Assembly: GCA_002787095.1 (NCBI GenBank)
Contig: PCVW01000010.1
Coordinates: forward strand, 7,774 to 71,773
Source: Candidatus Omnitrophica bacterium CG11_big_fil_rev_8_21_14_0_20_64_10
GTDB taxonomy: Bacteria > Omnitrophota > Gorgyraeia > 1-14-0-20-64-10
DNA: 64,000 bases
Direction of reading: 5' to 3'
In this document: piece by piece, positions 3,424 through 58,286 of the stretch
Numbering within the stretch: the first letter of the stretch is position 1
Layout of the letters: every line of letters starts with the position of its first letter
Position numbers and translations under genes: made by a program
The notes under the pieces: model-generated
Told to the model about the DNA's origin: nothing
The model's database searches: none
Seen by the model: the letters and a program-made list of their open reading frames with translations, nothing else

Positions 3424-4287
3424 TTACTCCTTGTTTGTCTTTTGATGAACGATGAAATTGCCGCCATGTTTGAGGCGCCGGACCACCCGGACCCCGAACG
3501 GCCGGTTCCCGATCCCCGCCTTCTCCAACAGGCGGGAGAGCGGGTCCGGCTTCAGCTGGCCGAGGAACTCCAGCCCGTGCCGATGAAGCAGCTCATTCCA
3601 GACCGGCATGGCCTGGTAGATGAAGTTCTTCTCCAGATGGATGTGGTGCTGCTCCGAGGGGCTGAAGGTGGATTTGCTGATCAGCCATCCCCCCGGCTTG
3701 AGCGTCTTCGCGATCCGGCCGACCGCCTCATCCAGATCGAACAGATGCTCGAAGACATCCCAGGCGATCACCGCGTCGTACCGCTCCTGCGGCAGCGGCT
3801 CTAGGGCGGAGAGGACCTCCGCCTCGAAGCCTTCCCGCTTGAATCGCCAACCGGCGTAGTCCCGGGTGTTGCCCGGCACATCCAGGTGATCGCATCGGAT
3901 TCCCCGCCGCCGCAGGTGCAGAGTGACGCCGCCGACCCCGCCGCCAAAGTCCAGCACCCGCTCCTTGCCCCATCGCCGGCAGGCCAGCGCCAGCACCTCG
4001 AGCCATTTCTGCTTGTCCCGCGTCGCCTCCCAGTAGCTCAGTTCATACAGGTACTGCGGCGTCTGGGCGTAGTAGGCGTCCACCTCCGCGGCGGTTTGGG
4101 CCCGGGCGGCCCGCTTCTGCGCCTCCACATCCTCCGTTTCCTTCTTCTCCCAGTAGGTTTTGGCGATCGCCTCCAGCGGTTCCCGGAGGTACCCGGTCAG
4201 GTGGCCAAAGGCAGTTTCGGCCGCCCGGGGATCCAGCCCCGCGACGCAGAGCTCCTCCTCCAGGGCCGGATCACGATACGGCGTCAT
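3424..4287 (-). CDS. class I SAM-dependent methyltransferase (MT1)
   Basis: Motif I VLDFGGGVGG and post-I acidic residue; ATG at 4287-4285 checked (cat on the plus strand). Confidence 0.75.
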   Translation of the reverse strand: MTPYRDPALEEELCVAGLDPRAAETAFGHLTGYLREPLEAIAKTYWEKKETEDVEAQKRAARAQTAAEVDAYYAQTPQYLYELSYWEATRDKQKWLEVLALACRRWGKERVLDFGGGVGGVTLHLRRRGIRCDHLDVPGNTRDYAGWRFKREGFEAEVLSALEPLPQERYDAVIAWDVFEHLFDLDEAVGRIAKTLKPGGWLISKSTFSPSEQHHIHLEKNFIYQAMPVWNELLHRHGLEFLGQLKPDPLSRLLEKAGIGNRPFGVRVVRRLKHGGNFIVHQKTNKE

Positions 4288-5872
4288 GGTTTTCCGCGAT
4301 CTCCCAGTATTTGGCCCAGAGGGCATGGTGAAAGAAGGCGGTCAGCCCGGCGAAGAGGAACCCGATCCGCCCTTCCCGGAAGCCCCCCTGCTTGATGAAC
4401 GATTTCCAGAAACGGTGGATCGGTTTGAAGACCATCTGTCCCCGCACGACCTGCCAAGGGAGCCGGCCCTTCTCCCGGAAGAGGACCGCCGCCTCGACGT
4501 TCGAGTAATGGTTCTGCCGGTCGATGAACTGCGCGAACGATTGGAACGGATGGTGCTCGATCTCCGCTTCCAGCGGGGCGACCTCCCCGTCCACCTGCAG
4601 GCGGACATGGATCCCCTGCCCCACGCAGCGGGCGTTCTTCCTGCGGAACAGGATCCGGTGCCGGTGCCGCCAGCCCCCCCGCCGCATCGGATGGCCCAGG
4701 AAGAAGTTGAGTCGGATCAGGTCGTAGGCCCGGACCCGGCCGTCGTTGGTCCGCAGCGCTTCATCGATCGCGTCCCGCAGCGCCGGGGTCACGATCTCGT
4801 CGGCGTCGATGTGCAGGATCCACTCGCTCTCGGCCCGGTCGCTGCCGATGTTCCATTGCTGATCGTGGTTGTCCCGGGAGGGATGGACGAACACCTTGGG
4901 GGTGAAACGCTTCGCGATCGCGACGCTGTCGTCGCTGCTTTCATCGTCCACGATCACGATCTCGTCGGCCCATCCCTGGACCTGCTCCAGGCAGTGGGCC
5001 AGCCGGGCCGCTTCGTTCTTCACCATCATCACCACCGCCAATGTCGGGCGCCGCCGGCCCGGGGGCTCCGCCGCCGGCCGGCTCACCGCATCTCCCGCCG
5101 GAACGGTCTCCGTCCGCTGCGTTGCTTCCCAGTATTTGGCGTAGCTGACGAACTGGTAGAGGCCGCCGAGGACCGCGGCGACGAAGCCGATCCAGCCGTC
5201 CTTCCGTCCCTTCTTGCCGACATAAGCCCGAAAGAAGCGGTCGATCGTCCGCTGCATCCCCTTGCCGAACGACATCTTCCGGCCGTCGGTCAGCCACTTC
5301 CGGGTCTCCAGGGTCGTTTGCCGGTTGAGCTTGCCGATGAAATCCCCGATGTCCCGATAGGAGTAGTGGAGGATGTCGCCGGTCAGCGCCCCCGAGGGCT
5401 GGTCGGAGATCGCCCGGCAGTGGACCGTCGTCTCCTCCCAGCGGAAGGCGGACCGCTTGTACAGCTTGACCTGGGCGCTTGGGTACCAGCCGCCGTGCTT
5501 GAGCCAGCGCCGCCCGATGTAGTTCCGGCGGGGAATCGCGTAGACGGCCTTCTCCGGTGTCCCCCGGAAGAGGGTCTGCAGTTCCTCCGCCAGCTCCGGG
5601 GTCACCCGCTCGTCGGCGTCGATGCTCAGGATCCAGTCGTTCCGGGCCTGGGCCGCCGCCCAGTTCCGATGCCGCCCTTCCAGGTCCATCTTCCGGTGGA
5701 CGACCCGGACCCGGGGGCTCTGATTCCTGGCGATCGCGACGGTGTCGTCGCTGCTTTCATCGTCTACGACCAGGATCTCGTCGGCGAACGGCACCGAGTC
5801 CAGGCAGTCCCGGATCCGGCCGGCCTCGTTCTTCGTCAGGACGACGACGGTGAGCGGGAGAGATTCCGGCAT
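4271..5872 (-). CDS. tandem (two-domain) family-2 glycosyltransferase
   Basis: Two consecutive GT-A/GT2 modules: LTVVVLTKNEAGRI...ILVVDDESSDDT and LAVVMMVKNEAARL...IVIVDDESSDDS. ATG at 5872-5870. The first 111 aa of track ORF 4271..6205 are rejected as an extension. Confidence 0.8.
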   Translation of the reverse strand: MPESLPLTVVVLTKNEAGRIRDCLDSVPFADEILVVDDESSDDTVAIARNQSPRVRVVHRKMDLEGRHRNWAAAQARNDWILSIDADERVTPELAEELQTLFRGTPEKAVYAIPRRNYIGRRWLKHGGWYPSAQVKLYKRSAFRWEETTVHCRAISDQPSGALTGDILHYSYRDIGDFIGKLNRQTTLETRKWLTDGRKMSFGKGMQRTIDRFFRAYVGKKGRKDGWIGFVAAVLGGLYQFVSYAKYWEATQRTETVPAGDAVSRPAAEPPGRRRPTLAVVMMVKNEAARLAHCLEQVQGWADEIVIVDDESSDDSVAIAKRFTPKVFVHPSRDNHDQQWNIGSDRAESEWILHIDADEIVTPALRDAIDEALRTNDGRVRAYDLIRLNFFLGHPMRRGGWRHRHRILFRRKNARCVGQGIHVRLQVDGEVAPLEAEIEHHPFQSFAQFIDRQNHYSNVEAAVLFREKGRLPWQVVRGQMVFKPIHRFWKSFIKQGGFREGRIGFLFAGLTAFFHHALWAKYWEIAENHDAVS

Positions 5873-7768: not shown

Positions 7769-7870
7769 GGGCCCCCCATTCTACCAGAACCGCCGCCGGA
7801 AAAGGGGGCTGGCCCAAAAGGGGGTCAAAGGGGGCAGGCCTTCAGTACCCCGCACCGGCCAACATTTCGG
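7769..7870 (-). promoter_or_regulatory. only substantial intergenic gap of the locus (102 bp); candidate internal promoter / RBS region
   Basis: The minus strand reads ...cctTTGACCcc...(39 nt)...ggTAGAATGGGGGGcccATG. A -10-like TAGAAT and a G-rich Shine-Dalgarno sit just upstream of the ATG; the -35 spacing is non-canonical. No convincing terminator hairpin. Confidence 0.2.
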
Positions 7871-9957: not shown

Positions 9958-11209
9958 GGCGAAGGGTTCGGGCGGTCCCCCAGACGGCGCCGGCCAGCGT
10001 CCAAAAGAGAGCCGACTGCCGCAGGGCGTAGAGTTGTGTGTCGAAGGCGATCTGGACCGCGAAAGCGGTCAAGGCCGCCAACCCGGCGGCCAGATCCACT
10101 CGGATCATCCGGGGGTCGTCGGCGGAAGGGGTTCGGATCGCCCGAATCGCGTGGATCGCGCCGGTGATCCCGAAGACCAGGAAGAGGCTCAACCCCACGA
10201 GCCCCGTCTCGGCGGCGATCTGCAGATAGCAGTTGTGGGCGTAGGCCGGACCGCCGGCGGTTCCCTGCCCGACGAACCGGTCGTAATTCGCCATGAAGGT
10301 GTTGAGCCCCTGTCCCAACAGCGGTTTGTCCAGGAACATCTGCCAGGCGGTCTTGAACCAGATCAACCGTTCGATGGACGAAGCATCCCGGAGCGCGGCC
10401 AGTTTCCCCCAGGCGTCGGTTTGAAAGAACATGTAGCCGTTGGCGGCCAACAGTCCGATCCCGGCCGGAATCCAGAACCGCCACCGCCCCGGTTTCAGAC
10501 ACAGGAGCAGAACGGCCGCCGCGGTTAGGCCGATCATCGAAGCCCGGGAGCGGGTTCCGATGATTGCGATCAGCAGCATCGCGAGCAGCAGGGTGAAGCC
10601 GCTGGAGAAGAGGCGGCCGGTCCAGTGGATCCGGACCAGCGCGATCGCCGCCGCCATCATCAGCAGGGTCGCCAGGTCGTTGGGATTGGTGTAGGGCCCC
10701 ATGAACCGCCCGTAGATCAGCGGTTTTCCAAGGACGGGGTCTGCGATGACGAGGCCGGGGTGCGTATTTCCCCAGACCGCCTGCTGCTGCAGGAAGGAGT
10801 GGAGCAGGACCAGGAGCGTCACCGTGACCAGGGCCCGCAGACAGCGGCGCAGCACGCCGGGCGTTTCGGCGATCCGTCCGGCGATGAAAAAGAAGAAGCC
10901 GTATTCCAATGTTTTTCGGATCCATCCGGCGATGCTCAAGCCCGGATGGGTGCTGAAGAAAACGGTGACGCCGCAGATTGTGAGATAGACGATCAGCCAG
11001 AAGCCGACCGGACGCCCCGGCCCCGGTTCCACCGGGAAGTTTCCCGGTCGGGGAATCCCCCAGCCGATCAGCCAGCAGGCAAGCAGGACGAAGAAGAGGA
11101 TTTCGATCGCCGCATTGGAATAGGGGATGACGAAAAAGAGAAGCGGAAGCGCCGACCGGCCGATGGTTCGGGCCGGCGGCCATCCCGCCCCTCGTTCGGT
11201 TTCGGTCAT
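9932..11209 (-). CDS. O-antigen ligase family (WaaL/Wzy_C) polytopic membrane protein
   Basis: About 12 TM segments and the Wzy_C motif AYAHNCYLQIAAETGLVGL. ATG at 11209-11207 forms an ATGA overlap with the upstream stop. Confidence 0.8.
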   Translation of the reverse strand: MTETERGAGWPPARTIGRSALPLLFFVIPYSNAAIEILFFVLLACWLIGWGIPRPGNFPVEPGPGRPVGFWLIVYLTICGVTVFFSTHPGLSIAGWIRKTLEYGFFFFIAGRIAETPGVLRRCLRALVTVTLLVLLHSFLQQQAVWGNTHPGLVIADPVLGKPLIYGRFMGPYTNPNDLATLLMMAAAIALVRIHWTGRLFSSGFTLLLAMLLIAIIGTRSRASMIGLTAAAVLLLCLKPGRWRFWIPAGIGLLAANGYMFFQTDAWGKLAALRDASSIERLIWFKTAWQMFLDKPLLGQGLNTFMANYDRFVGQGTAGGPAYAHNCYLQIAAETGLVGLSLFLVFGITGAIHAIRAIRTPSADDPRMIRVDLAAGLAALTAFAVQIAFDTQLYALRQSALFWTLAGAVWGTARTLRHDRSTGAA

Positions 11210-13023
11210 GGCGGATCTTGCAGGAAGGCCTGTTCGTCCGGAAGCAGGGTGTTCGCCATTCGCCAAGGGAGGGCATGTTCCTCGCAGGTGATTTGGACAT
11301 GCCGCACCAGATCAGCCGGCGGCCGGCGGATTGCGATCCAAACCTCCTGCACCGACCGTTCATGCAGCAGCCGGCCCAGCATCTGCCGGGGGCCGAGGAT
11401 CCGGACCCCATGGATCTGGCTGCCCCGCTTGGCCGGATCGTCGTCCAGAAATCCGACGATCTTCCTTCGGGATTGGGGCATCTGTTTGACTTGGCGGCTC
11501 AGCATCGCGCCGGTGTCGCCGGCCCCGATCACCAGGATTGCCCGGCTTTGGCCGGTTGAGAGCAAGATCCATTCGTCCAACAGCCGTTCGGTGACGCGGA
11601 CCCCTCCGATGAGGATGAAGAGGAGCAGCGCGTCAATGACGAAGGTCGTCCGGGAATACCCTTCGAACTTCCAGAGCATCAGGACGGCGATGGCCGAAAA
11701 GACCGATCCCAGCAGGACCGCCCGAAGAATGTTGACGAGGTCAGGAATGCCGGTGTAGCGCCAGATCCCCCGGTAGAGGCCGCAAGAAAAGAAGCAGAGC
11801 ATCTTGACGCCGATCACCAGCGGCAGCGTTCGGCCGATCAGCTGCTGTGTTTCAGCGGTCAGGCCCCCCTCGTAACGCAGCAGATGGGCGAACACATAGG
11901 CGGCGCAGATCATCGTGAAGTCAATGCCGACCTCAACGATCCGTCGTTTGTGGAGCAGCATCGTCTGGATCAGGGTCACCCGCTCCTGGGGATGAGGGGT
12001 CCAGCCGGCTGGACCGGTATAGACCCGGACCTTGCCGAGATAGATGCCGAAGATCAGGAACCCGCCAACGGCGAGCAGCCAGACGCCGGCAATGGTCAGC
12101 GGCAGCTGACGGGTCATCGCGACGCTGAGGAGGCCGAATCCAATCGAGATCCCGTAGAGGGTGAAGACCACCTGCCGGGTGGTCAGTCCCAGAATACTCA
12201 TCCGGTGGGAAAGATGGTCGGTCCCCCCCTGGAATGGGGAGCGGCCGTGCGTCATCCGCTGCAGGGTGACGAACAGGGTGTCGAAGATCGGCACCGCCAG
12301 CAGCAGCGACGGCAAGGCCAGGATCCCGACCAGCCGGGTAGATTGCTGCCAGGTGCCGGCCAGCGCCAAGGCTCCCAGCCCCAGTCCCAGCACCTGGCTG
12401 CCGGAGTCCCCCAGGAAGACCTTGGCCGGCGGCAGATTGAACCGGAGAAAGGCGAGCGCGCTGCCCCCAATGGCCGCCGCAATCACCGCCACATCCGCCT
12501 GCCCTACTGCGGCGGCGTGCCAAACACAAAAAAAGGCGGCGATTGCCCCGATCCCCGCCGCCAAACCGTCCATGTTGTCGATCAGATTGAAAGCGTTCAT
12601 CATCAGAATCAACCAGCCGATCGTGACCGGGGTTTCAAGCCACGGAACCGGCAGGGAGACCTGGATGCCGCACAGGGGGACCGCGCAGGCGGCGATGATT
12701 TGGGCGACCAATTTCGCATAGGGACTCAGCCGGCGGATGTCGTCCACCATCCCGATGCCCAGCATCAGGATTCCCGCCAGGGCCAGACCGATCAGGGTCT
12801 TGTCCTGGGGGATCTGTGAAGCGATTGCCGCCAGGAAGCTCAGCGCCAGCGGGACCCCTCCCAGGCGGGCGATCACCCGCCGGCCCCAGCGGTCGTTCGA
12901 GGGGTGGGAAACCCATCCCTGTGCAACGGCCAGGCGGCGGATCAAGGGGGTGCTCAGCAGCATGAAAAGGCCGGCGCCCCCTCCCCAGATCAGAATCGAT
13001 GGAAACATGTCAGTCGGATCCAT
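11206..13023 (-). CDS. WecA/MraY-family polyprenyl-phosphate HexNAc-1-phosphate transferase fused to a WbaP-N-terminal-like TM/Rossmann domain
   Basis: The N-terminal half has the PNPT motifs (MVDDIRRLSP, NAFNLIDNMDGLAAG). The C-terminal ~250 aa have 4 TM helices, then ILVIGAGDTG and KIVGFLDDDPAKRG...GVRILG, which resemble the N-terminal CoA-binding-like region of WbaP-type phosphoglycosyltransferases but without their catalytic domain. ATG at 13023-13021. Confidence 0.75.
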   Translation of the reverse strand: MDPTDMFPSILIWGGGAGLFMLLSTPLIRRLAVAQGWVSHPSNDRWGRRVIARLGGVPLALSFLAAIASQIPQDKTLIGLALAGILMLGIGMVDDIRRLSPYAKLVAQIIAACAVPLCGIQVSLPVPWLETPVTIGWLILMMNAFNLIDNMDGLAAGIGAIAAFFCVWHAAAVGQADVAVIAAAIGGSALAFLRFNLPPAKVFLGDSGSQVLGLGLGALALAGTWQQSTRLVGILALPSLLLAVPIFDTLFVTLQRMTHGRSPFQGGTDHLSHRMSILGLTTRQVVFTLYGISIGFGLLSVAMTRQLPLTIAGVWLLAVGGFLIFGIYLGKVRVYTGPAGWTPHPQERVTLIQTMLLHKRRIVEVGIDFTMICAAYVFAHLLRYEGGLTAETQQLIGRTLPLVIGVKMLCFFSCGLYRGIWRYTGIPDLVNILRAVLLGSVFSAIAVLMLWKFEGYSRTTFVIDALLLFILIGGVRVTERLLDEWILLSTGQSRAILVIGAGDTGAMLSRQVKQMPQSRRKIVGFLDDDPAKRGSQIHGVRILGPRQMLGRLLHERSVQEVWIAIRRPPADLVRHVQITCEEHALPWRMANTLLPDEQAFLQDPP

Positions 13024-13858
13024 TATAGCGTACCCGGCGGGCCTGCAGCCGCTGCACCCACCGGTACCAGTCATAGCATCCGGCGGCTCCCTTTCGGATC
13101 TCCTCGGGGTCGTCTCCCCAGCTGAGGCGGATCCGCTTGAGACAAAGGGGATCGGTTCCAGAAGCGGTTTCCACCCCCCAGACGGTTGTGCAGGCGGTTT
13201 GGAACTTGTGCCGTTCCAAGAGGGTTCGGGTCGCGGGGGTGAAGGTGCCGTAGGTACCGTAGGGATAGGCGAAGTGGACCGGTGGGGTCCCGATCCGCTC
13301 CTGAATGATTTGTCGGGAGCGTTCCAGTTCCCGCTCTGCTTCCTCCAGCGGCAGGTGGCTCAGGGGATGGTGGGCATCGGTGTGGCTGCCGATCGTCCAG
13401 CCCGGTTCGGAAGCGAGACGCCGCAGCTCCGGCCAGGTCATCGGACGGCCCAACGCCGGTCCGGTCCAGGAGAAGGCTGGCCGGCCGATCCAGCCGGTTG
13501 CGACGAACAAGGTGGCTGGGACCCGATGCCGCGCCAGAATGGCCTGGGCATGTTCCAGAACGCCGAGGTAGCCGTCATCAAAGGTGACCGCGACCCAGGG
13601 TCCCCCGTCGGCTCCCCGCCGCAGGAGGTTGACCCCCTGCCCCAGCTCGACCGGCGTCAACCCGGCCGGCCGGAGGAGCGCCAGATGGCTTTCCAGCCGT
13701 TCCGCGGAGATGCTCACCTGCAGTGGATCCTCGACCGGTGCGGCGGTGACCGCGTGGTACATCAGAATGGTCAGGGAGCGGGCCGGGATCTGCCGCAGCC
13801 CGAGCCGGTGCAGCCCGGCCCCGACTGCCTGCCGGATCCGGAGCCGAGCCGGCTTCAT
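13010..13858 (-). CDS. polysaccharide deacetylase (CE4/NodB homology)
   Basis: VAVTFDDGYLGVLEHAQAILARHRVPATLFV, then HTDAHHPL. The start is the internal M (MKPARL...) overlapping the upstream stop; the local numbering is uncertain by 1 nt. Confidence 0.8.
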   Translation of the reverse strand: MKPARLRIRQAVGAGLHRLGLRQIPARSLTILMYHAVTAAPVEDPLQVSISAERLESHLALLRPAGLTPVELGQGVNLLRRGADGGPWVAVTFDDGYLGVLEHAQAILARHRVPATLFVATGWIGRPAFSWTGPALGRPMTWPELRRLASEPGWTIGSHTDAHHPLSHLPLEEAERELERSRQIIQERIGTPPVHFAYPYGTYGTFTPATRTLLERHKFQTACTTVWGVETASGTDPLCLKRIRLSWGDDPEEIRKGAAGCYDWYRWVQRLQARRVRYNGSD

Positions 13859-15665: not shown

Positions 15666-15678
15666 GAGGGGGATTATA

Positions 15679-49200: not shown

Positions 49201-50438
49201 CAGATCACCCGGGGAGCGGGAATCGGGATCAGGAACCGGCCTCCTCCGGCCCGGAAGGATTCCATCTGCCGAACGATCTCCTCCTGAAAGTTCCAGGCCA
49301 GAATCACCAGATGGGTGATGCCGTTCGGATTCCAGCCTTCGGGAGAGCGGACCGGCAGATGGGTTCCGGGGGTCCATAGTCCCTGCTTGTGGGGCGAGCG
49401 GTCCAGCACACAGACCAGCCGGGCGGCCGCTTCGGGGCAGAAATTGAGGAGGGTGTTCGCCTTGGCTGCCGCCCCGTAGCCGGCCAGCCGCCCGCCCGAC
49501 TCGGCGATCCTCTGAACCAGCGATTCAAACCTTCCCTTCCAGCGCCGGACGCGGCCCGCGAAACGATTGAAGGCGGCCGGATCGGTCAGTTTGAGTTTCC
49601 TTTCCGCCGCCAGCAGGGTCTTGAGATTCGAAGTGGGACGGCCGCTCCCTTTGCGCTGCAGGGTCATCAGGATCGACCCGCCGTGCAGCGCCACCGGCTC
49701 CGCCTCGATCAATTGGAAGCCGGTCATCTCGGCCAACCGGGCGATCGGCGCCAGGGCGATATAGGAGAGGTGCTCATGGTAGATCGTGTCGAATTCGTCC
49801 GCTTCCAGCAAGTTCTTCAGGTACGGCACCTCGATCAGGAGGACCCCATCCGGGGTCAGAAAATGGTCGGCGGCGGCCATGAAATCGTGCCAGTCGTCGA
49901 TGTGGGCAAAAACATGGCGTCCCAGCAGGACCCGGGCCTGCTTCCCTTTTTCCTTCCCGGAGAGGATCTTCCGGACCGTTTTGGCGCAGAAGAATTCCGA
50001 GACCGTCGGAACGCCTCGGGCCTGCGCGATCCGGGCCAGGTTCCGGGCCGGCTCGATCCCCAGCACCTGGGTCCCGAGCCCCTGAAAGGCCTTCAGGATC
50101 AGGCCGTCGTTGCTCCCCAATTCGGCGACCCGGTCCTCCGGGCCCAACCGATAGCGGGCGCAGATGCGGGCCGCCAGCGTGCTGGCGTAGACCCGGACCG
50201 CGTCGGAGGTGGAGGAGACATACAGGTAATTGCGGTACAGCTGCTCCGGAGGAACTGTTTCGGTCAGCTGGACCAGTCCGCAATCGGGACAGCCGGCAAC
50301 CGCCAGCGGGAAACGGGGCTCCTTCTTGAAATCGGATCGGTTCTTGAGAAAGGCATTGGCCAACGACATCGGTCCCAGATCCAGGAACGGTTCGGGGAGT
50401 TGGGTTTGGCAGATGCGGCAACGGGTATGGGCAGACAC
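49200..50438 (-). CDS. NDP-hexose C-methyltransferase (TylC3/NovU family), copy 2
   Basis: Zinc ribbon CRICQT...LANAFL...CPDC; ELGSNDG motif I; C-terminal C-methyltransferase domain (LAWNFQEEI). GTG start at 50438-50436. Confidence 0.8.
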   Translation of the reverse strand: MSAHTRCRICQTQLPEPFLDLGPMSLANAFLKNRSDFKKEPRFPLAVAGCPDCGLVQLTETVPPEQLYRNYLYVSSTSDAVRVYASTLAARICARYRLGPEDRVAELGSNDGLILKAFQGLGTQVLGIEPARNLARIAQARGVPTVSEFFCAKTVRKILSGKEKGKQARVLLGRHVFAHIDDWHDFMAAADHFLTPDGVLLIEVPYLKNLLEADEFDTIYHEHLSYIALAPIARLAEMTGFQLIEAEPVALHGGSILMTLQRKGSGRPTSNLKTLLAAERKLKLTDPAAFNRFAGRVRRWKGRFESLVQRIAESGGRLAGYGAAAKANTLLNFCPEAAARLVCVLDRSPHKQGLWTPGTHLPVRSPEGWNPNGITHLVILAWNFQEEIVRQMESFRAGGGRFLIPIPAPRVI

Positions 50439-50446
50439 GGATCGGC

Positions 50447-50896
50447 TCAGCGGTGCTGGATCCGCCAGTCGTACGGGATTGCGCCGCTCGCCGGATCGAG
50501 GCGCTCGATCTCATCCGGATCATGGGGAATCGTCGCGCAGTTGGCCACGATCGCCGGGGTCGTTCCCATCCCCTTGAAGCCGTTCCAGATGAAGGGGGGG
50601 ACCTGCACCAGCTGGTATTGGGACTCCCCGAGGAAGACCTCCTGGATCTCCCCGCGGCTCCTGGAGTCGGGCCGGTCGTCGTACAGCGCCAGCTTGATCA
50701 TCCCGACCGGCACCGCGTAGTTGATCGTCATCCGGGAATGTTTGTGCCATCCCTTGACGACCCCGGGATAGACGGAGGAGAAATAAATTTCCCCGAATTT
50801 CTCAAAATGGGGATCGGTCGCCTTCAGCATGTGCATGACCCGGCCCCGTTCGTCCGGGATCACCTTGAGCGGGATGATCCGCACCCCCTCGATCAT
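50447..50896 (-). CDS. RmlC-like cupin (NDP-4-keto-6-deoxyhexose 3,5-epimerase family)
   Basis: [18 protein letters not shown]...KGWHKH, an RmlC-type fold. ATG at 50896-50894 in an ATGA overlap. Confidence 0.7.
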
Positions 50897-51930
50897 CGGG
50901 TCTCCCGGGCCTCGCTGGCCGATTCCTCGGCGGCGAAGAAGCGTTCGTACCAGGTGATCGTGCGGCGCATCCCCTGCTCCAGCGAGAAGAGCGGTTCCCA
51001 ACCGAGCCGCTTCCGGGCTTTTTCGGCGTCCAAATACTGATGGGGAATCTCGTGCGTCGCCTCGTTGCGGATGTCGAGGGAGAGGTCGCGGCGGTCCATC
51101 CATCGAGCGATTTGCTCCGCGATTTCCAGGACCGACAGCGGCTGCTCGTTGCTGAAGTTGAAGGCCTCCCCCGCCAGCGCGCGGTCCTGAATCAGATGCT
51201 GGGCGAGCGTCAGGTACGCGGCCGCCCCGTCTTCAACGTAAAAATAGTCCCGGGTCATCGTGCCGTCCGATCGGATCACCGGACGCTCCCCGCGGATCAG
51301 GGAGCGGATCGTTCCGGGAACGATCCGGTTCCAGTTCAGGTCTCCGCCCCCGTAAAGGTTGCCGCAGCGGGCGATCGCGACCGGCAGCTTCCAGGTGGCC
51401 GCGTAGCTTTGCGCGATCAGGTCGGCGCAGGACTTGCTGACATCGTAGGGATGCCGGCCGGCCATCGGAGCGTCTTCCCGGTAAGGCAGTCCGCTCTGTT
51501 CCCCGTAGGCTTTGTCGGAAGAAGCCAGGACGATCCCTTCGATCCGGGGGGAGCGCCGGGCCGCTTCCAGCAGGGACCAGGAGCCCCGAATGTTGCTCTC
51601 GAAGGTGGAGACGGGGTTCCGGTTGGCGATCGGGACGATGGTTTGGGCCGCCAGATGAAAGACCGCGCTGACCTCGTACTCCCCCAGGACCCGCTCCATC
51701 AAGGGTTGGTCCTGGAGCTGCCCGCGGACCACCCGAACCCGGTCCAGAAGCCCCTCCCGAACCAGCGGGCTTTGCGGCACCCAATCCCGGATCAGCGCCA
51801 CGACATCGGCGCCGGCTTCCAGCAGGCGCCGGACCAGCCACCCCCCCTGCAGGCCGGCCCCGCCGGTCACGAGGACCGAACGGTCCCGCCAGAAGGTTTT
51901 GGAAGAAGGGGTCGGGGCGGCCGGCGGCAT
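50893..51930 (-). CDS. rfbG: CDP-glucose 4,6-dehydratase-like SDR
   Basis: [20 protein letters not shown] (compare FWxGKxVFVTGHTGFKGSWL), SDKAYG, YDVSK and [10 protein letters not shown]...RIVP blocks typical of RfbG/DdhB. ATG at 51930-51928. Confidence 0.8.
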
Positions 51931-51933
51931 CGT

Positions 51934-52767
51934 TCAATCCGGAAAGTGGCTCAGCCCGATCGGCTTGAAGGCGACACAGAACAGTTCCTCTGAAAGATAG
52001 TTTCGGATTCCCCACGCCTCGGTGGAGAGGAACTCCATCAACGCGCCGTCGCCGAAGCGGCGCAGCGGCGCGTAATAAAAGCGGTAGTTGAGAAAGCCGG
52101 CCGACAGCAGCGTTCGGGTGAGGCGCCGTTTCGTCGTCAGCCCGATGTGCTGGGGATCGTCCGAACCGGGCCCCTGGGAGATGCAGTAGCGCATCGGGTT
52201 CTGAAAACGCAGGAGCCCCCGCAGCCGTTTGAACCCAAGGGCCAGCTCGAGATACGCGAGGTTCGGCGTCTTGATCACCAGCGGCGCGCCGGGCTTGAGG
52301 ACCCGCAGCGCCTCCTGAAAGGCGGGAAGCTTCTCGGCGTCGGTGATGTGTTCCAGGAAATCGCCGGAGATGGCCGCGTCGAAATGGTTGTCCGGGAAGT
52401 CCAGTTTCCGGACATCGGCGCAGCGGGCCTCCCCGGTGATCCCGAACCGCCTGAGGTTCCCGTTGGCCTTCTCGACCTGCTTGGGATCCAGGTCGGCCCC
52501 GTAAACGGCCGCTCCCTGGAGGCCGCAATAGATCATCATCGCGCCGTCGGCGCAGCCCATGTCGAAGATCTGCTGTCCCGGCCGGGGATTCAGCAGATGG
52601 AGGGCGAAATCCTTGAGCCGGAGGAAATCCAGGTTCTTGCGGCACTTCCCGTGCTTGTGGTCGGCCCCCCGAACATCGGTGTCGTTGAGATAGAAGTAGC
52701 CCTTCAGCCAGCCGTCTTCCGGATAGCGGTCCCGGGGGGGCGGAGGGTTCAGCAGGGTACCCGGCAT
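51934..52767 (-). CDS. class I SAM-dependent methyltransferase (MT7)
   Basis: IFDMGCADGAMM motif I; ATG at 52767-52765. Confidence 0.75.
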   Translation of the reverse strand: MPGTLLNPPPPRDRYPEDGWLKGYFYLNDTDVRGADHKHGKCRKNLDFLRLKDFALHLLNPRPGQQIFDMGCADGAMMIYCGLQGAAVYGADLDPKQVEKANGNLRRFGITGEARCADVRKLDFPDNHFDAAISGDFLEHITDAEKLPAFQEALRVLKPGAPLVIKTPNLAYLELALGFKRLRGLLRFQNPMRYCISQGPGSDDPQHIGLTTKRRLTRTLLSAGFLNYRFYYAPLRRFGDGALMEFLSTEAWGIRNYLSEELFCVAFKPIGLSHFPD

Positions 52768-52768
52768 C

Positions 52769-53562
52769 TCAGCGCCACCGTTTCCAGGGAGCCCGCCCCG
52801 AGTCCCACAGATCGTTCAGCAGCTTGTATTCCCGGTAGGTGTCCATCGGCTGCCAGAAGCCGGTATGGGGATAAACCATCAGCTCTCCGTCCTGGGCCAG
52901 CCGCTGCAGCGGCTCCCGCTCCAGGACCAGGTCGGCGTCCGGCCGGATGTAGTCGGTCAGGAAGCGGCGGTTGAAAACGAAGAATCCGCCGTTGATCATT
53001 CCCTGCGTGGTCTGGGGTTTCTCATTGAATTGAACGACCCGTCCGTCGGCGCTCATCTCCATCTCGCCGAACCGGCCGGGCGGCCGGACCCCCGTGACGG
53101 TCGCGGTCTTGCCGTGCCGGCGGTGGAACGCCAGCAGGGCGGCCAGGTCGATGTCCCCCAGGCCGTCCCCGTAGGTCAGGCAGAAGGTCTCCTCTTGGAG
53201 ATACGACCCTCCCCGTCCCACCCGGCCTCCGGTCTGGGTGTTCAGGCCGGTCTCAACGAGGGTGACCTCCCAATTCTCCTCCGGGGGATTGCCGTGGTAA
53301 ACCGGCGGTTTCCCGTCCCCGAGGGTCAGCGTCATGTCTGACTGATGGGACCGGTAATTCAGAAAGAACTCCCGAATCACCTGCCCCTTGTACCCCAGGC
53401 AGAGGACGAACCGGGTCCATCCGAAGCTGGCGTACAGCTTCATGATGTGCCAGAGAATCGGCCGTCCTCCGATCTCCAGCATCGGTTTGGGCCGGAACTC
53501 CGTCTCTTCGTGCAGGCGGCTGCCGAGCCCCCCGCAAAGAATCATAACAGCTGGTTTGGACA
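52769..53562 (-). CDS. rfbF: glucose-1-phosphate cytidylyltransferase
   Basis: MSKPAVMILCGGLGSRLHEETEFRPKPMLEIGGRPILWHIMKLY...TYGDG...ATVTGVRPPGRFG...MINGGFFVF...GFWQPMDT is near-collinear with RfbF/DdhA. ATG checked at about 53562. Confidence 0.9.
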
Positions 53563-54750
53563 TGATTTGGCGCTTTCGATGAGCTGCCGGTAGACAGACT
53601 GGTATTTTCTCACACCTTGCCCCAAATCGAAACAGGACTCTGCGGCCCGCCGGCAGCGGGCCCAGAGCGTTTCCCCTTCCGCCAGCAGGGCCAGCAGCTC
53701 TCGGGCGGCCCGGTTCAGAGCGGCCTCCGAGCAGTCGGAGAGGACCACCCCCACCCGCCCTTCCCCGATCAGGCGGTCGCAGTCGCCGATCCCGGCGGTC
53801 ACCACGACCGGCAGGCCGCAGGCGAGGGATTCCCCGATTTTGGTGGGGCAGGAAGCCGTTTTGGAGGAGACCGGCCGAATCAGGCAGAGGGAGGCGTCCG
53901 CGCCGGCCAGCGCGCCGGCCACCTGATCGTGCGAGAGGATCCGCACCGTCACCGCGCTTGAGTCCAGACCGGCGATCGCCGTTTCGATCTGCGGGTCCGG
54001 ACGGGGAGAGAGGATCTCCCATCGGGTGTCCGGCCGAAGTCGTCGGACCGCCCGAAAGAAATCGGCCATTTCCGGCAGCAGGTAGGCTCCCCCCGCCGAT
54101 CCGGCATAGACCAGCCGCAGGGGCCCGCCGGCCCGTTTTTGAGCGGGCCTAAAACGCTCCAGGTCGGCGCAGGTCGGAATCACGGTGATTGGCCGGCGGA
54201 TCCCTTCGGTTTGAAACCGCTGCTCCAGGATCTCCCGGCTGCGATCGGTGAGGGTCACGATGTGATCGGCCGCTTCGAAAAAGCGCCGTTCCAGCCGCTT
54301 CGTGATCCGATAGAGCCAGCCGCCGGCTTTCCAGAATCCCCCCTCCACCTTCTCGTCGGGCCAGAAGCCTCGGATGTCGAACAGGAACTTCGACTCAAAC
54401 GGCCGCTTGAGCCAAAGGGCCAAGAGGGCGGCCACATAACTGCGGGCATGCAGAACTTCCGGCGGCCGGTTCCGGCAAGCCCGCCGGACCGTCCACCAGC
54501 CGGCCGCCAGATCCCAGACCGTCGACCCGATCGGGGGCCGCCGATGGTACCGAAGCCGAATCCAGCGGATTCCGGCCTCCCGCAAACGGCGCTCCAAGGA
54601 TTCCGCCTCCGGTTCCCTGCCCGGTTTCTCGAAGCTCACAACGGTCCATCTCCGATCAGGGCCGGTCAGGCGGAACAGATAGGGGAGAATCTGCGACTGG
54701 CCCAACGGATCCAGCAATCCGTCGTAAGAGAGATAAAGCAACCGGGTCAT
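53542..54750 (-). CDS. family-4 glycosyltransferase
   Basis: MTRLLYLSYDGLLDPLGQSQ..., then RLVYAGSAGGAY...KIGESLACGLPVVV. ATG at 54750-54748 in an ATGA overlap; the large track extension is rejected. Confidence 0.8.
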   Translation of the reverse strand: MTRLLYLSYDGLLDPLGQSQILPYLFRLTGPDRRWTVVSFEKPGREPEAESLERRLREAGIRWIRLRYHRRPPIGSTVWDLAAGWWTVRRACRNRPPEVLHARSYVAALLALWLKRPFESKFLFDIRGFWPDEKVEGGFWKAGGWLYRITKRLERRFFEAADHIVTLTDRSREILEQRFQTEGIRRPITVIPTCADLERFRPAQKRAGGPLRLVYAGSAGGAYLLPEMADFFRAVRRLRPDTRWEILSPRPDPQIETAIAGLDSSAVTVRILSHDQVAGALAGADASLCLIRPVSSKTASCPTKIGESLACGLPVVVTAGIGDCDRLIGEGRVGVVLSDCSEAALNRAARELLALLAEGETLWARCRRAAESCFDLGQGVRKYQSVYRQLIESAKSCPNQLL

Positions 54751-56177
54751 CCGTTCAGCGATCGATGGGGAGCCGGCACTGTCGCCGCAGCGGCCGCCGG
54801 GTCTCTCGGAAGCCCGATCATCACCAAAAAGAAGAGCAAGGGCCAGAGAGCGGAACGGTGGCGGAAGAGGGTCCCGACGTTCCCCTCCAGCAAAGCGATC
54901 ATCGTCAGGAAGACGGCGGAGGTGATCGGAATCAAAATCAGTCGGGGGGGGCCATTGCAGCTGCGCCAGAATCCCCGAAAGAGGAAAAAAAGCATCGGGT
55001 ACCAGAGAAGCATCTCCAGCGATCCGGCCAGCTCCCTGGCGGAACGGGCCAGCCACGGGGCCGGCAGGATCAGGGCGGACAGGAGCCCCATCGGAAGGAA
55101 GCCGAGCACCTTTCGCCAACTGTCGATGCGGTATGCCTCGAGGAACGGGGTCTCCGCCTCCATCATCCGGACCCGCCGCAGGTATTCGATCCGTTCGGCA
55201 AGCTGGTCCGGATTCACCGCCAACTCGGCCGCCGGCCGGCCAAACAGCCAGCGGTCCAGCTGCCGGCCGACGCCCGCAGCAACCGATTGAACAGGTCCGT
55301 TCGACCAAAGAAGAAGGGCCGAGAGGCACAAGACACCGGATATCGCCAAGGCCGTCCGGCTTTTCAGCAGCAGCCGCAAGAAAAGATAGCAGCCGAAGGA
55401 GAAAAGCAGCAGAGGGCCGATGAACATGTTGAATTGCTGCAGCAGCCCCATGAACAGCGCGCCGAGCGGCCAGCCCCACCATCGGTTCCTCCCACGGGCC
55501 AGGAGAAAACAGCAGATTCCGGCCAGCACCAGAAAAAGGGAGACCGGTTCCTTGAGGTTCTGCGTCGACCAAAGAAAGAGAGAGGGCCAAAAGGCGGTCA
55601 GGAGGGCCGTCCATCGGGCCTGCCGCTCCGGAAGGAATCGCCGGGCGAGCCAGTAGCTCAAGAGGGCCGACCAGGCGCCGAACAGACAGTTGACAAAGAA
55701 AAGATTCAGCGGATGGTATCCCCCCAGGTAGGTCAGCCAGCCGTTCCACCAGTCGAAGGAGGTCGCCGCCTTCGACATGCTGAAATCCCGCAGCATGGCG
55801 GCGTCCGGAAAGATTCCCCGCCGCCAGTTCTCCGCCAGCCAGTAGCCGTTGTGGGCGTAGACATAACCGTCTCCGACCAGGAAACCGCCGTTTTGAAATT
55901 CGCCGGCCGGACCGGAAATCCAATGGCGGGAACCGGTGCAGTAGAAAAGAAGGGAGGCGAGGACCCGAAGCCCCAGGGCGGCGCCGAAGAGCTTCGGAGA
56001 CCAGGCATCGGAATCGACCCGGCGAATGAGGCCGAAGGAAATCACCGCCAGCGTCGCCAGCCCGATCCAGCCGATCCGGAGGGCCGGCGCGCTGATCCCG
56101 ATCAGCAGAATCAGGAGCAGAAGGGCCGGGATCGCCCGCCGGGCGGCCGGCGGAAGGCTAACCTTTGTCGGGTTCAA
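54747..56177 (-). CDS. polytopic membrane protein, GT-C-like (PMT/ArnT-type) glycosyltransferase candidate
   Basis: About 12 TM segments; first periplasmic loop GDGYVYAHNGYW; large hydrophilic loops. TTG start at 56177-56175 is the only in-frame start. Confidence 0.5.
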   Translation of the reverse strand: MNPTKVSLPPAARRAIPALLLLILLIGISAPALRIGWIGLATLAVISFGLIRRVDSDAWSPKLFGAALGLRVLASLLFYCTGSRHWISGPAGEFQNGGFLVGDGYVYAHNGYWLAENWRRGIFPDAAMLRDFSMSKAATSFDWWNGWLTYLGGYHPLNLFFVNCLFGAWSALLSYWLARRFLPERQARWTALLTAFWPSLFLWSTQNLKEPVSLFLVLAGICCFLLARGRNRWWGWPLGALFMGLLQQFNMFIGPLLLFSFGCYLFLRLLLKSRTALAISGVLCLSALLLWSNGPVQSVAAGVGRQLDRWLFGRPAAELAVNPDQLAERIEYLRRVRMMEAETPFLEAYRIDSWRKVLGFLPMGLLSALILPAPWLARSARELAGSLEMLLWYPMLFFLFRGFWRSCNGPPRLILIPITSAVFLTMIALLEGNVGTLFRHRSALWPLLFFLVMIGLPRDPAAAAATVPAPHRSLNG

Positions 56178-57480
56178 GAGGTTCCATCTTGGAGATGGTT
56201 CCGTTGAGCTGCGCCCTTTTCGTGATCAACGGGATCTCCTGTCCAATCCGGTCTTTTTCCGGATTCATCAGCAGTTCGGCGACGACCTTCAGATCGAAGC
56301 GGCCGTCCGTTTGGCGCAGGCGCAGCGCCCCGTCCGGAGATCCCTCCACGACGAAGAGATTGGCCGGGGGTTTCGATTCGACCGAGATGATTTTCCCAAT
56401 AATGGGGAACTCTCCGGCAAACGGCCAGCCGCCCATCGGACCCAAGATGGCATCCTCGGGATGAATGGCTTCAACCAGATAGCAGGGCAGGTCCGCGGCA
56501 TGCAGCGTCACCCGCCACGGCCGTAGGGAAACGACCCTTTCCTCGCCCACCGTCTCCTGCTGCTCCTGTTTCGGCGCAACAGAAGTCACCTGAACCGTCC
56601 GCTCCGAGAAATCAACCACCTCCCCCGAAAAGGCGTATTCGTCGCTCTCCAGGGAGAGGGGCTGTCCGGCGATCAGCGGTTTCCCTTCGTAATAGATCCG
56701 GTTCGCCCCCTGGTGGGCGTTCAAGGCGATCCAAATGTCCACCCGGGAGAGCCGGTCCCTGCTGGCGGGGGTGATCCGCAGCAGTCCCTGTTCGTTGATC
56801 GGATAGGCCAGCAGCTGCTGAGATTCCTCGGAACCGTTCTCCGGGATCAGGGCCCCTCCGATCAGGCGTCCCACAGGGCTTCCGGACTTGTTGTAAAGTT
56901 TGTCCCCCTCGCTCATCCGCCTGACGATCTCCGGGATCAAGTCCACGCTTCTGAGTCGAATGTAAACCTCAACCGGTTTTCCGGACAGGATGACGCCGGA
57001 GACGCTGTAAACCGGTTTTCCCTGCTCCGTCTTCTGGAAAGAGATCTCTCTGTGTTGGGCCACCGGCTGTCGGCGGAAAAGAAAATCTCCCTCCTGCTCG
57101 AAGGTGCCGTGGAGGCGCAGTTTGACGAGGACCTCATAGCGGGGATCCTGAAAACGGATCAGGGCGGACAATCCTCCCCCCAGGGAAGCCTGTTCCGGGA
57201 GGGGGCGGGTGGAAAGGATCTCCAGCAGTTCGGCGACCATCCGGCCGGCGGGATCCGACTCGCTGTCTCCGGCCTTCAGCCGGTCCATCTGCGCCCGGGT
57301 CATCGGGTGGAGGCGGACATAAACCTCCATCGAGTCCTCCACCTGCCAGGGGACCATTGGGATCTGCGGGACGATCAGCAGCCGGTAGCTGGAAACCGCC
57401 AGGACCATCAGGACCGCCACACCCAGTGTGACGCCCCAGGTTTCCCATCGCCTGGGCCGCGGGGAAGTCGGATCGCTCAT
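56158..57480 (-). CDS. hypothetical exported/periplasmic protein with N-terminal signal anchor
   Basis: A single N-terminal TM (WGVTLGVAVLMVLAV); the remaining ~400 aa have no recognised family. ATG at 57480-57478 in an ATGA overlap; TAG stop at 56160-56158. Confidence 0.4.
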   Translation of the reverse strand: MSDPTSPRPRRWETWGVTLGVAVLMVLAVSSYRLLIVPQIPMVPWQVEDSMEVYVRLHPMTRAQMDRLKAGDSESDPAGRMVAELLEILSTRPLPEQASLGGGLSALIRFQDPRYEVLVKLRLHGTFEQEGDFLFRRQPVAQHREISFQKTEQGKPVYSVSGVILSGKPVEVYIRLRSVDLIPEIVRRMSEGDKLYNKSGSPVGRLIGGALIPENGSEESQQLLAYPINEQGLLRITPASRDRLSRVDIWIALNAHQGANRIYYEGKPLIAGQPLSLESDEYAFSGEVVDFSERTVQVTSVAPKQEQQETVGEERVVSLRPWRVTLHAADLPCYLVEAIHPEDAILGPMGGWPFAGEFPIIGKIISVESKPPANLFVVEGSPDGALRLRQTDGRFDLKVVAELLMNPEKDRIGQEIPLITKRAQLNGTISKMEPLEPDKG

Positions 57481-58286
57481 CTGCCAGCTCCTTTGTCGGT
57501 TGATTTTGTTCCGACCGCGAAAAAATTCAGGCGGAACGGAAAACTCAAGAACAGGCGCCGCACCTCAAACGGGCCCTGCAGCAGCCGCCGCAGGGTGCCG
57601 GCGCTGAACAACTGGATGTGTCCCATCGCCAGGTCGTCGCTGAGCGGACCCAGGAAACCGCGCAGCCCCAGCCGCTTCAGCATCGTCTTGATCGCCACAA
57701 TCCATCGGTCGTTGGGAACGGAGACGACCAGCCGGCCGCCCGGCGCCAGCACCCGGGCCAGCTCTCCGACCGCTTCTTCCGGCCGCTCCAAATGCTCCAG
57801 CACCTCGGTGCAGAAGATCAGGTCGAGCGAGCCGTCCCGGAACGGCAGCCGGGTCACATTGGCGGCCATCGCCGGAATCGCGGCCGCCGAACCGTTTTTC
57901 CGGCGATTCTCCCGAAGCATCCCCGAATCCAAATCGGCCAGCAGCGACAGACCGGATCCGCCGAGCCGCCGGGCGGTCACCTGCCCTGACTCGCACCCGA
58001 TGTCCAGAATCCTTCGGGCGGGACAATCCCCCAGCCGTTCGGTGATCCGGAACCGCTGCCGTTCGACCCATCGGATCAGCGGATTGGGATGGGCCGATTT
58101 CTGCGCCATCGGATGCGCCCGATTGACCGCCTGATTCCATTCGGCGACGGAAACCGGCTGGTCGTTCTTGAAAAGGAGAAAGCGGCCCCGCGCGTCATCC
58201 CAACGCTTGAGGAAACGGTCCGAACCGACGCGGTAAAGGTGTTCCCCTTCGTTCCAGCTCACGATTGGGACTCCCGTTGGGCCCAT
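57477..58286 (-). CDS. class I SAM-dependent methyltransferase (MT8)
   Basis: ILDIGCESGQV motif I; ATG at 58286-58284. Confidence 0.75.
   Translation of the reverse strand: MGPTGVPIVSWNEGEHLYRVGSDRFLKRWDDARGRFLLFKNDQPVSVAEWNQAVNRAHPMAQKSAHPNPLIRWVERQRFRITERLGDCPARRILDIGCESGQVTARRLGGSGLSLLADLDSGMLRENRRKNGSAAAIPAMAANVTRLPFRDGSLDLIFCTEVLEHLERPEEAVGELARVLAPGGRLVVSVPNDRWIVAIKTMLKRLGLRGFLGPLSDDLAMGHIQLFSAGTLRRLLQGPFEVRRLFLSFPFRLNFFAVGTKSTDKGAGR

Follow-up and report, generated by a model that had tools for sequence, protein, structure and literature searches.

Organization of the locus and its candidate methyl-transfer genes

The 64-kb stretch of DNA analyzed here (the window) is part of a contig of Candidatus Omnitrophica bacterium CG11, a metagenome-assembled genome (MAG) from Crystal Geyser that belongs to the uncultured groundwater Omnitrophota, and it carries a long run of cell-envelope glycan genes that is dense in methyltransferase (MT) genes. 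The window has a GC content of 65%, and a frame plot of GC at third codon positions (GC3) places nearly all of its coding capacity on the minus strand, as an unbroken chain of some 57 genes. Neighboring genes overlap or are separated by no more than 19 nt at 55 of the 56 junctions, the remaining gap being 102 nt. By frame plot and junction spacing, the whole window (positions 1–64000, minus strand) is a co-directional glycan super-operon, and in the source contig the run extends about 4 kb past each end of the window.

A preliminary description of this DNA singled out eleven genes as methyl-transfer enzymes: eight class-I S-adenosylmethionine (SAM)-dependent MTs (MT1–MT8), two sugar C-methyltransferases (CMT1 and CMT2), and a B12-binding radical SAM enzyme (B12-rSAM). 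All eleven are real minus-strand open reading frames (ORFs) in the highest-GC3 frame, with Pfam domains that match their assignments.

1719–3005, minus strand: CMT1, TylC3/TcaB9-family nucleoside diphosphate (NDP)-hexose 3-C-methyltransferase, 428 aa, PIQ82806.1; Methyltransf_13, SAM, and Methyltransf_14 domains
3424–4287, minus strand: MT1, class-I SAM MT, 287 aa; Pfam Methyltransf_23/11/12/25 above cutoff; motif I VLDFGGGVG
13855–14685, minus strand: MT2, class-I SAM MT, 276 aa; Methyltransf_11 at 72 bits; motif I variant LDIGAGPA
20616–21530, minus strand: MT3, class-I MT with an N-terminal CxxC...CxxC zinc ribbon, 304 aa; Methyltransf_23 at 87.9 bits
23787–24542, minus strand: MT4, class-I SAM MT, 251 aa; Methyltransf_23 at 83 bits; motif I LLEIGCGDG
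26268–27407, minus strand: MT5, 379 aa; Methyltransf_23/11 on the C-terminal half
33107–34006, minus strand: MT6, class-I SAM MT, 299 aa; Methyltransf_11/25/31
37435–39003, minus strand: B12-rSAM, 522 aa, PIQ82836.1; B12-binding and Radical_SAM domains
49200–50438, minus strand: CMT2, NDP-hexose 3-C-methyltransferase, 412 aa, PIQ82846.1; Pfam and full-length Protein Data Bank (PDB) matches
51934–52767, minus strand: MT7, class-I SAM MT, 277 aa, PIQ82849.1; Pfam and AlphaFold2 model; inside a predicted CDP-deoxysugar/C-methyltransferase cassette
57477–58286, minus strand: MT8, class-I SAM MT, 269 aa; Methyltransf_11 at 69 bits; motif I variant ILDIGCESG

A ninth class-I MT (MT9, 329 aa, with a Trm112p-type zinc ribbon) lies about 3 kb beyond the right end of the window (positions 120–1109 of L009), by a gene of the LPG_synthase_TM family and a third AsnB-like gene.

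The setting of these genes is that of a cell-surface glycan locus, as had been proposed. Pfam scans of every gene find about 17 glycosyltransferases in the cluster (7–8 GT2, 4 GT4, 2 GT9, and 3–4 GT-C), among them two heptosyltransferase-like GT9 genes, together with a WecA-like Glycos_transf_4 protein (108 bits), a Wzx-like flippase, and a Wzy_C/WaaL-like protein (82 bits); Pfam and NCBIfam also identify many sugar-nucleotide enzymes. The window holds a single initiating phosphoglycosyl transferase and a single Wzx-like gene. A second Wzy_C-type protein scores 26 bits, below cutoff, and no ABC-transporter (Wzm/Wzt) pathway was seen in the locus.

To count MT-fold ORFs in the same way everywhere, we used a hidden Markov model built from the shared core of the eight class-I MTs, which recovered every Pfam-annotated MT in independent loci as well as both C-methyltransferases. 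The window has 10 MT-fold ORFs in 64 kb (1.56 per 10 kb), compared with 4 in 1305 kb (0.03 per 10 kb) across 80 PriA-centered genomic loci, 14 in 317 kb (0.44 per 10 kb) across 19 other glycan loci that carry a member of this B12-rSAM family, and 5 in 59 kb (0.84 per 10 kb) in four loci with an MT7 orthologue, the query MT being left out. MT density in the window is about 50 times the PriA background and about 3.5 times that of the B12-rSAM loci (Poisson P = 2e-14 and 7e-4), figures to be read with the model being tuned to the window's own MTs and the comparison sets being small. The enrichment is real and goes beyond chance. Several environmental glycan loci carry 2–4 MTs per 15–20 kb. Counting by a union of phmmer searches with the eight MTs was discarded as too insensitive: it gave 1 match in 1.3 Mb and missed the C-methyltransferases.

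The class-I MTs are at most 37% identical to one another, and then only over a Rossmann core of about 120 aa, and the two C-methyltransferases are 39% identical. Recent paralogous expansion of one MT is thereby ruled out, in agreement with the earlier statement that this is not one gene duplicated.

Two predicted C-methylation cassettes

CMT1 and CMT2 both match, above cutoff, the zinc domain PF08421, the SAM domain PF13489, and PF08484 (Methyltransf_14). Each has two CxxC pairs (at residues 24 and 66 in CMT1 and 7 and 50 in CMT2), and both keep the motifs VFAHxDD (VFAHADD in CMT1) and FDTIYHEHLSY, which we take to map onto the catalytic residues of TcaB9. In CMT2, residues 2–389 align with MtmC (4rv9, E = 4.5e-95), a full-length match; 5t64 (6e-72) and TcaB9 (3e-68) are matched over their full length as well, and KijD1 is another enzyme to which CMT2 aligns from end to end. 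The PDB search was made with CMT2, and CMT1 is linked to the solved enzymes through its identity to CMT2. The GTG start of CMT2 at 50438 retains the first CxxC and the full Methyltransf_13 match and agrees with the 412-aa NCBI protein, whereas the call in the ENA, JGI, and Logan records (389 aa, start 50369) loses the first CxxC of the zinc domain.

CMT2 lies in a gene group that we refer to as cassette A; the genes around CMT1 are cassette B.

46714–53545, minus strand: cassette A, comprising a cytidylyltransferase, MT7, a dehydratase-like short-chain dehydrogenase/reductase (SDR), a cupin, CMT2, a reductase, a GFO/IDH/MocA oxidoreductase, and a hexapeptide acetyltransferase
52769–53545, minus strand: glucose-1-phosphate cytidylyltransferase (TIGR02623, 346 bits against a cutoff of 300)
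50893–51930, minus strand: CDP-glucose 4,6-dehydratase-like SDR (TIGR02622, 222 against 278; best match yet below cutoff)
50447–50896, minus strand: RmlC-type cupin (dTDP_sugar_isom, 30.4 against 27)
48304–49200, minus strand: RmlD-like 4-reductase (TIGR01214, 218 against 224)
3002–3418, minus strand: 138-aa ORF of cassette B carrying RGNHYH, between MT1 and CMT1, with sub-threshold matches to Cupin_2, Cupin_1, and FdtA

No 2,3-dehydratase or 3-aminotransferase gene is adjacent to CMT2. Because CMT2 is homologous to MtmC, KijD1, and TcaB9 over its full length and sits within a predicted CDP-glucose deoxysugar cassette, the C-branched sugars that had been predicted for this locus are well supported at the sequence level. 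The strongest specific prediction is a CDP-6-deoxy-3-C-methyl(-O-methyl)hexose. In cassette B, the neighbors of CMT1 are MT1, the 138-aa possible cupin, an SDR, and a GFO oxidoreductase, with MT1 adjoining both the cupin-like ORF and CMT1. The 138-aa ORF may be the epimerase/isomerase of this second cassette.

Class-I methyltransferases and their acceptors

MT1–MT8 all score above the Pfam gathering threshold for class-I families (Methyltransf_11 and/or Methyltransf_23/25), and family assignment gives no sign that most of them are something other than Rossmann MTs. In a core alignment, the motif I loop (of the type xLDxGxGxG) and the acidic D about 20 residues on, after β2, are intact in all eight. 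The preliminary description gave each enzyme its own GxGxG; the loop is recognizable in every case, but the literal motif occurs only in MT1, MT4, MT5, and MT6. The other four carry GAGPA (MT2), GCAYG (MT3), GCADG (MT7), and GCESG (MT8), which are usual class-I variants. All eight are predicted to be soluble, with no transmembrane segments.

The surroundings of the individual genes differ. MT2 is placed between an SDR and a polysaccharide deacetylase. MT3, with the CxxC motifs of its zinc ribbon at residues 20 and 42, is found between a GT2 gene and a Wzy_C-like membrane protein. MT5 is directly downstream of the Wzx-like flippase; its first 185 residues or so have no family match, its class-I domain is C-terminal, and its PDB match (1vlm) covers the core only. 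MT6 comes after a DegT aminotransferase and a hexapeptide acyltransferase, and MT8, for which the public gene call is 261 aa with a start at 58262, is downstream of a GT2 gene.

The folds of these enzymes say little about what they methylate. PDB sequence matches of all eight are confined to the Rossmann core and mix acceptor classes, with sugar O-MTs (RebM 3bus, 6uv6) alongside MitM, UbiG, and phosphoethanolamine/phospholipid N-MTs; those of MT2 include MitM, RebM, and a glucose O-MT. MT7, the one class-I enzyme modeled, has a class-I MT fold in its AlphaFold2 model (mean predicted local distance difference test score, pLDDT, 93.7) and matches more than 1500 MT chains in Foldseek with probability 1.00. 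The model is about equally distant (template modeling score about 0.5) from TleD, RebM, AtmM, MitM, SpnF, and phosphoethanolamine N-MTs. Clustering the eight by profile or structure into sugar O-MTs and others, a check proposed in the preliminary description, failed when it was run: there was no separation, and both the PDB sequence neighbors and the fold neighbors of MT7 were mixed. Sequence and fold do not assign the acceptors of the eight class-I MTs to O, N, acyl, or other groups.

It is possible, then, that several of these MTs do not methylate sugars at all and have lipids, phospho-substituents (phosphoethanolamine, for instance), or amino or acyl groups as their targets, that they cap chains in the manner of WbdD, or that they use the SAM fold for chemistry other than methylation. 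Sugar O-MTs are no more frequent among their nearest solved relatives than phosphoethanolamine/phospholipid N-MTs, UbiG, the cyclase SpnF, and TleD; none of the MTs matches a curated sugar-MT family; and the LPG_synthase_TM gene adjoins MT9. We nevertheless consider this unlikely. All of the MTs lie among the glycosyltransferase and sugar-nucleotide genes of one operon, the sugar O-MTs RebM and AtmM are among the closest folds, MT7 is linked to C-methyltransferase cassettes, and WbdD-type capping needs the Wzm/Wzt pathway that the locus appears to lack.

MT7 is the enzyme for which genomic context is most informative. It has more than 260 orthologues (52–67% identity), and in loci L134 and L136, which are from unrelated lineages, the orthologue adjoins a cassette of C-methyltransferase, cupin, and SDR. 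Because orthologues adjoin such cassettes in two of four unrelated contexts, the sequence comparison supports a role for MT7 on a C-methyl sugar.

A B12-radical SAM enzyme and its module

The eleventh gene of the preliminary description encodes a protein with B12-binding (PF02310, 76 bits against a cutoff of 32) and radical SAM (PF04055, 74 bits) domains, in which the CxxxCxxC motif (Cys242/Cys246/Cys249) is invariant among 25 homologues. It belongs to an uncharacterized family of its own, whose members are 45–76% identical across many phyla and include one relative in a Leptospirales MAG. Two genes near it recur in the loci of other family members.

35738–37435, minus strand: 565-aa partner protein with an (α/α)-toroid plus β-sandwich fold and no signal peptide or transmembrane segment
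41048–42937, minus strand: AsnB-like glutamine amidotransferase 2 (Pfam Asn_synthase and GATase_7; TIGR01536, 433 bits)
31275–33191, minus strand: AsnB-like paralogue 1 (Pfam); the third paralogue is the one to the right of the window

Among 17 loci of the B12-rSAM family that are at least 9 kb long, an AsnB-like amidotransferase is present in 13 and a homologue of the 565-aa protein in 10, whereas class-I MTs are only sporadic. Besides the window, the module is seen in loci L011, L013, L014, L016, L099, L102, L105, L113, L115, and L126, often with a GT2 of about 310–330 aa alongside, and its members are all unannotated in public records. Homologues of the 565-aa protein number more than 650, and every one is labeled hypothetical. 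Its AlphaFold2 model (pLDDT 87.8, predicted template modeling score 0.90) matches 1rwa, 8fyg, 6hzn, and 2e24 in Foldseek with probability 1.00; in fold it most resembles chondroitin AC, hyaluronate, xanthan, and alginate lyases, along with human dermatan-sulfate epimerase 1. From these folds, the module of B12-rSAM, AsnB-like protein, and 565-aa protein probably acts on uronic acids.

The count of eleven methyl-transfer enzymes holds for the ten genes with a SAM-MT fold. The eleventh reaches no NCBIfam cutoff for a methylase or for any other subfamily: it scores 217 bits against a cutoff of 750 for ApyD and is far below cutoff for HpnJ, BchE, PhpK, and HpnR. In a PDB search, the sugar diol-dehydratase AprD4 ranks first among its solved relatives, and TokK, CysS, and OxsB come after it. 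Since no methylase cutoff is reached, AprD4 is the best relative, and the partners are an amidotransferase and a protein of lyase/epimerase fold, the B12-rSAM is better seen as part of a separate cross-phylum module than as a methylase, a role that is an assumption.

Could it still be a genuine class B radical SAM C-methyltransferase that acts on an unactivated carbon of the glycan, as a third type of methylation? It has the B12-binding domain and the CxxxCxxC radical SAM core, and its similarity to PhpK, HpnR, TokK, CysS, and Mmp10-type methylases is significant, although below cutoff. Methylation is the activity of most characterized B12-rSAM enzymes, the sugar C-methylases GenK and GenD1 among them, and this, too, speaks for such a role. 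Its top NCBIfam scores are, however, common to the non-methylases HpnJ and BchE, its top PDB match is a dehydratase, and the genes with which it co-occurs encode an amidotransferase and a lyase/epimerase-fold protein rather than MTs. On balance the odds lie somewhat against a methylase.

A bolder proposal is that the three proteins form an undescribed glycan-tailoring module shared by Omnitrophota, Acidobacteriota, Alphaproteobacteria, Gemmatimonadota, Leptospirales, and others, in which uronic-acid residues of envelope polysaccharides would undergo a radical reaction, such as a rearrangement or the C-methylation of an unactivated carbon, coupled to C5-epimerization and amidation. Together with the two C-3 methylases and nine class-I MTs, this would place the glycan among the most heavily alkylated surface polymers. 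We regard this full scenario as rather improbable. Our literature search found no paper that links a B12-rSAM to an O-antigen or capsule cluster.

Further genes and the borders of the locus

A second radical SAM gene was missed in the preliminary description.

30184–31278, minus strand: radical SAM plus SPASM enzyme (Pfam SPASM and Radical_SAM), between an AsnB-like gene and a GT4 gene

It reaches no NCBIfam cutoff, the top model being a tungsten-cofactor maturase (106 bits against 380), and is not a methyl-transfer candidate.

The initiating transferase (11206–13008) is an unusual fusion, with a WecA/MraY-type Glycos_transf_4 domain at residues 95–240 or so, followed by a CoA_binding_3 region (residues 362–585) that matches the N-terminal, non-catalytic half of the WbaP/EPS_sugtrans profiles. 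Three GT-C/PMT_2 (ArnT-like) membrane glycosyltransferases are encoded within 54747–56177, 60305–63970, and 42937–44670, and two of them adjoin a small GT2 gene (63263–63970), like the ArnC/ArnT or GtrB/GtrC decoration pairs. A protein with seven transmembrane segments (DUF6798) is also among the membrane proteins of the locus. The ArnT-like genes and the DUF6798 protein suggest decoration of a glycan or lipid in the periplasm beside the cytoplasmic pathway. Five proteins of 300–625 aa with no or faint family matches (DUF4330, PQQ_2/SGL, GDSL), encoded at 22273–23898, 24532–26409, 56158–57480, 38996–39898, and 39834–41048, interleave with MT4, MT5, MT8, and the B12-rSAM, and a homologue of the DUF4330-like protein recurs beside the MT7 orthologue in locus L133.

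The 102-nt gap (7769–7870) is C/T-rich and separates the GT9 pair from the GT2 genes downstream; it may represent an internal promoter or a sub-locus boundary. A scan for tRNA and Rfam elements in the window found none. To the left of the window, which is downstream, the glycan genes close with a GFO oxidoreductase, a GmhB-like haloacid dehalogenase-type protein, and a GT28, after which come UDG, priA, def, fmt, and galT. To the right, upstream, are the third AsnB-like gene, the LPG_synthase_TM gene, and MT9, and there the contig stops; the locus may extend beyond its end. The flanking PriA, when used as a genome query, gave no syntenic relatives, the best matches being only 48–51% identical and from Omnitrophota and lineages of the Planctomycetes–Verrucomicrobia–Chlamydiae group. 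The NCBI counterparts, PIQ82806–PIQ82864 on a contig of 76,075 bp, are mostly labeled hypothetical protein. Contigs of ENA (75.7 kb), JGI, and Logan carry identical proteins as well; an assembly artefact is ruled out by this agreement of proteins and segments among independent assemblies.

A model for the locus

From what is observed (the genes present and their domain families, the makeup of the cassettes, the enrichment, and the conserved neighborhoods), we infer the acceptors, the order of steps, and the final glycan as follows. The window would be most of a single-strand, translationally coupled super-operon of at least 70 kb for cell-envelope glycan, the product of which is most likely a polymer of the lipopolysaccharide (LPS) core/O-antigen type with periplasmic glycosyl decorations. 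In each of two deoxysugar cassettes, a TylC3/TcaB9-type enzyme would methylate C-3 of an NDP-4-keto-6-deoxyhexose before 4-ketoreduction, the predicted starting substrate of cassette A being CDP-glucose. Nine soluble, divergent, stand-alone class-I MTs, eight of them in the window, may then add methyl groups in the cytoplasm, on nucleotide sugars or on a lipid-linked oligosaccharide, ahead of flipping by Wzx. The case for MT7 is the strongest among these; linked to the C-methyl sugar, this enzyme could give a vinelose- or cladinose-like sugar with both C-methyl and O-methyl groups. The B12-rSAM would belong to a different module with the AsnB-like protein and the lyase/C5-epimerase-fold protein, probably modifying uronic-acid residues. 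We put the probability of this explanation as a whole (an envelope-glycan super-operon with two C-methyl cassettes, tailoring MTs, and a separate B12 module) at roughly 0.75.

Several results weigh against it. No class-I MT reaches any curated NCBIfam equivalog cutoff, and none is tied to a known sugar-MT family. An MT7 orthologue stands beside a C-methyltransferase in only two of the four sampled contexts. In cassette A, the CDP-glucose 4,6-dehydratase and RmlD assignments are slightly under their curated cutoffs; for cassette B, no nucleotidyltransferase was found, and its 138-aa ORF has nothing above threshold as a cupin. The Wzx-like flippase is a borderline call, at 27.6 bits for Polysacc_synt where the cutoff is 28.2, and family scans of the window genes show no Wzz.

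Whether all of this serves one glycan is a separate matter. The genes are envelope-glycan genes, as the preliminary description had it, but the single glycan it assumed is doubtful given so many transferases and subsystems. Because there are about 17 glycosyltransferases, two Wzy_C-type proteins, two GT9 genes, pairs of GT2 and GT-C, and three AsnB paralogues, the cluster probably serves two or more products or decoration systems, whether or not its genes are transcribed together. Taken further, the window could be a row of adjacent but independent envelope-glycan systems fused into one direction of transcription: an LPS core with its ligase, a Wzx/Wzy O-antigen or exopolysaccharide, an ArnC/ArnT-like decoration system, and the B12-rSAM/AsnB module. 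The MTs would then be spread among them and no single glycan would be exceptionally methylated. The abundance of transferases, Wzy_C-type proteins, and AsnB paralogues fits this picture, as do the GT2 and GT-C pairs at 60305–63970, the occurrence of the B12 module on its own in other loci, and the separate occurrence of cassettes with MT7 and a C-methyltransferase elsewhere. The near-continuous run of overlapping or closely spaced junctions argues instead for co-expression, and the single initiating transferase and single Wzx-like gene of the window also weigh against independent systems. We give such a set of independent systems about an even chance.

Under the super-operon model, the locus is of interest in two ways. 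Methyl groups on surface sugars raise the hydrophobicity of a glycan and block recognition by lectins, phages, and glycosidases. Because the Omnitrophota are uncultured and are believed to prey on other cells or to live attached to them, an operon of at least 70 kb for a heavily tailored glycan is informative as a pointer to how they build their surface. The locus is also a compact set of candidate sugar-tailoring enzymes, notably a CDP-hexose 3-C-methylation cassette with its own MT and an uncharacterized B12-rSAM module that recurs widely across glycan loci from the environment. Nothing established is overturned, as MT-rich O-antigen loci and C-methyl sugars in LPS are already on record.

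Comparison with known systems

In the class B radical SAM enzymes (TokK, CysS, GenK/GenD1, PhpK, and HpnR, and the non-methylases BchE, HpnJ, OxsB, and AprD4), an N-terminal B12-binding Rossmann domain precedes a barrel with CxxxCxxC, as in the enzyme of the window. The latter falls outside the characterized subfamilies, however, and is linked to AsnB-like and lyase-fold genes in glycan loci.

The closest enzymes to the two C-methyltransferases are TylC3, MtmC, TcaB9, and KijD1, with full-length homology (E values of 1e-68 to 1e-95), the same three domains, and the FDTIYHEHLSY and VFAHxDD motifs. The substrates of those enzymes are dTDP-2,6-dideoxy or 3-amino sugars destined for secondary metabolites, whereas the context here is an envelope glycan and a CDP-hexose. 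CDP-vinelose of Azotobacter vinelandii is 6-deoxy-3-C-methyl-2-O-methyl-L-talose, and cladinose and noviose are likewise C-methyl plus O-methyl sugars. A CDP-linked, O-methylated 6-deoxy-3-C-methyl hexose such as vinelose fits the content of cassette A (RfbF, dehydratase, epimerase-type cupin, C-methyltransferase, reductase, and class-I MT), with the stereochemistry and the O-methyl position left unspecified. A literature search for vinelose genes gave nothing useful, and the comparison rests on the structure of the sugar.

C-methyl and O-methyl sugars are established in LPS. The virenose in the phase I O-antigen of Coxiella burnetii is proposed to arise when a TylCIII-type enzyme methylates an NDP-4-keto-6-deoxyhexose at C-3, and the pathway, encoded within an LPS locus, follows the logic predicted for the window, with nucleotidyltransferase, 4,6-dehydratase, 3-C-methyltransferase, and epimerase/4-ketoreductase acting in turn (PMC3539893). 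The window differs in its predicted carrier, which is CDP (TIGR02623 above cutoff) and not GDP or dTDP, and in having two C-methyltransferase cassettes, with a class-I MT embedded in one.

The published genomics of Omnitrophota mentions variable polysaccharide cassettes and has nothing on this locus, and the nearest parallel for the locus as a whole is in another phylum. The rfb loci of Leptospira are very large and mostly co-directional. They are LPS O-antigen loci rich in GT-A glycosyltransferases, SDRs, pyridoxal phosphate-dependent aminotransferases, cupins, and SAM-dependent MTs, and a survey counted 1–12 such MTs per locus (PMC10958091). The earlier view that few glycans are known with this density of methylation enzymes therefore does not stand, the more so as other environmental loci are MT-rich as well. 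The rfb loci use a Wzy-dependent pathway, and the window may do so as well. Leptospira belongs to the Spirochaetota and the window to the Omnitrophota, and the likeness is one of gene content, with no synteny or orthology shown; beyond what the rfb loci have, the window adds two TylC3-type C-methyltransferases and the B12-rSAM/AsnB/lyase-fold module. Because MT-rich glycan loci such as Leptospira rfb are already known, the locus is an unusually long, MT-dense example of a known locus type rather than a new system, and its most novel element is the B12-rSAM/AsnB/lyase-fold module.

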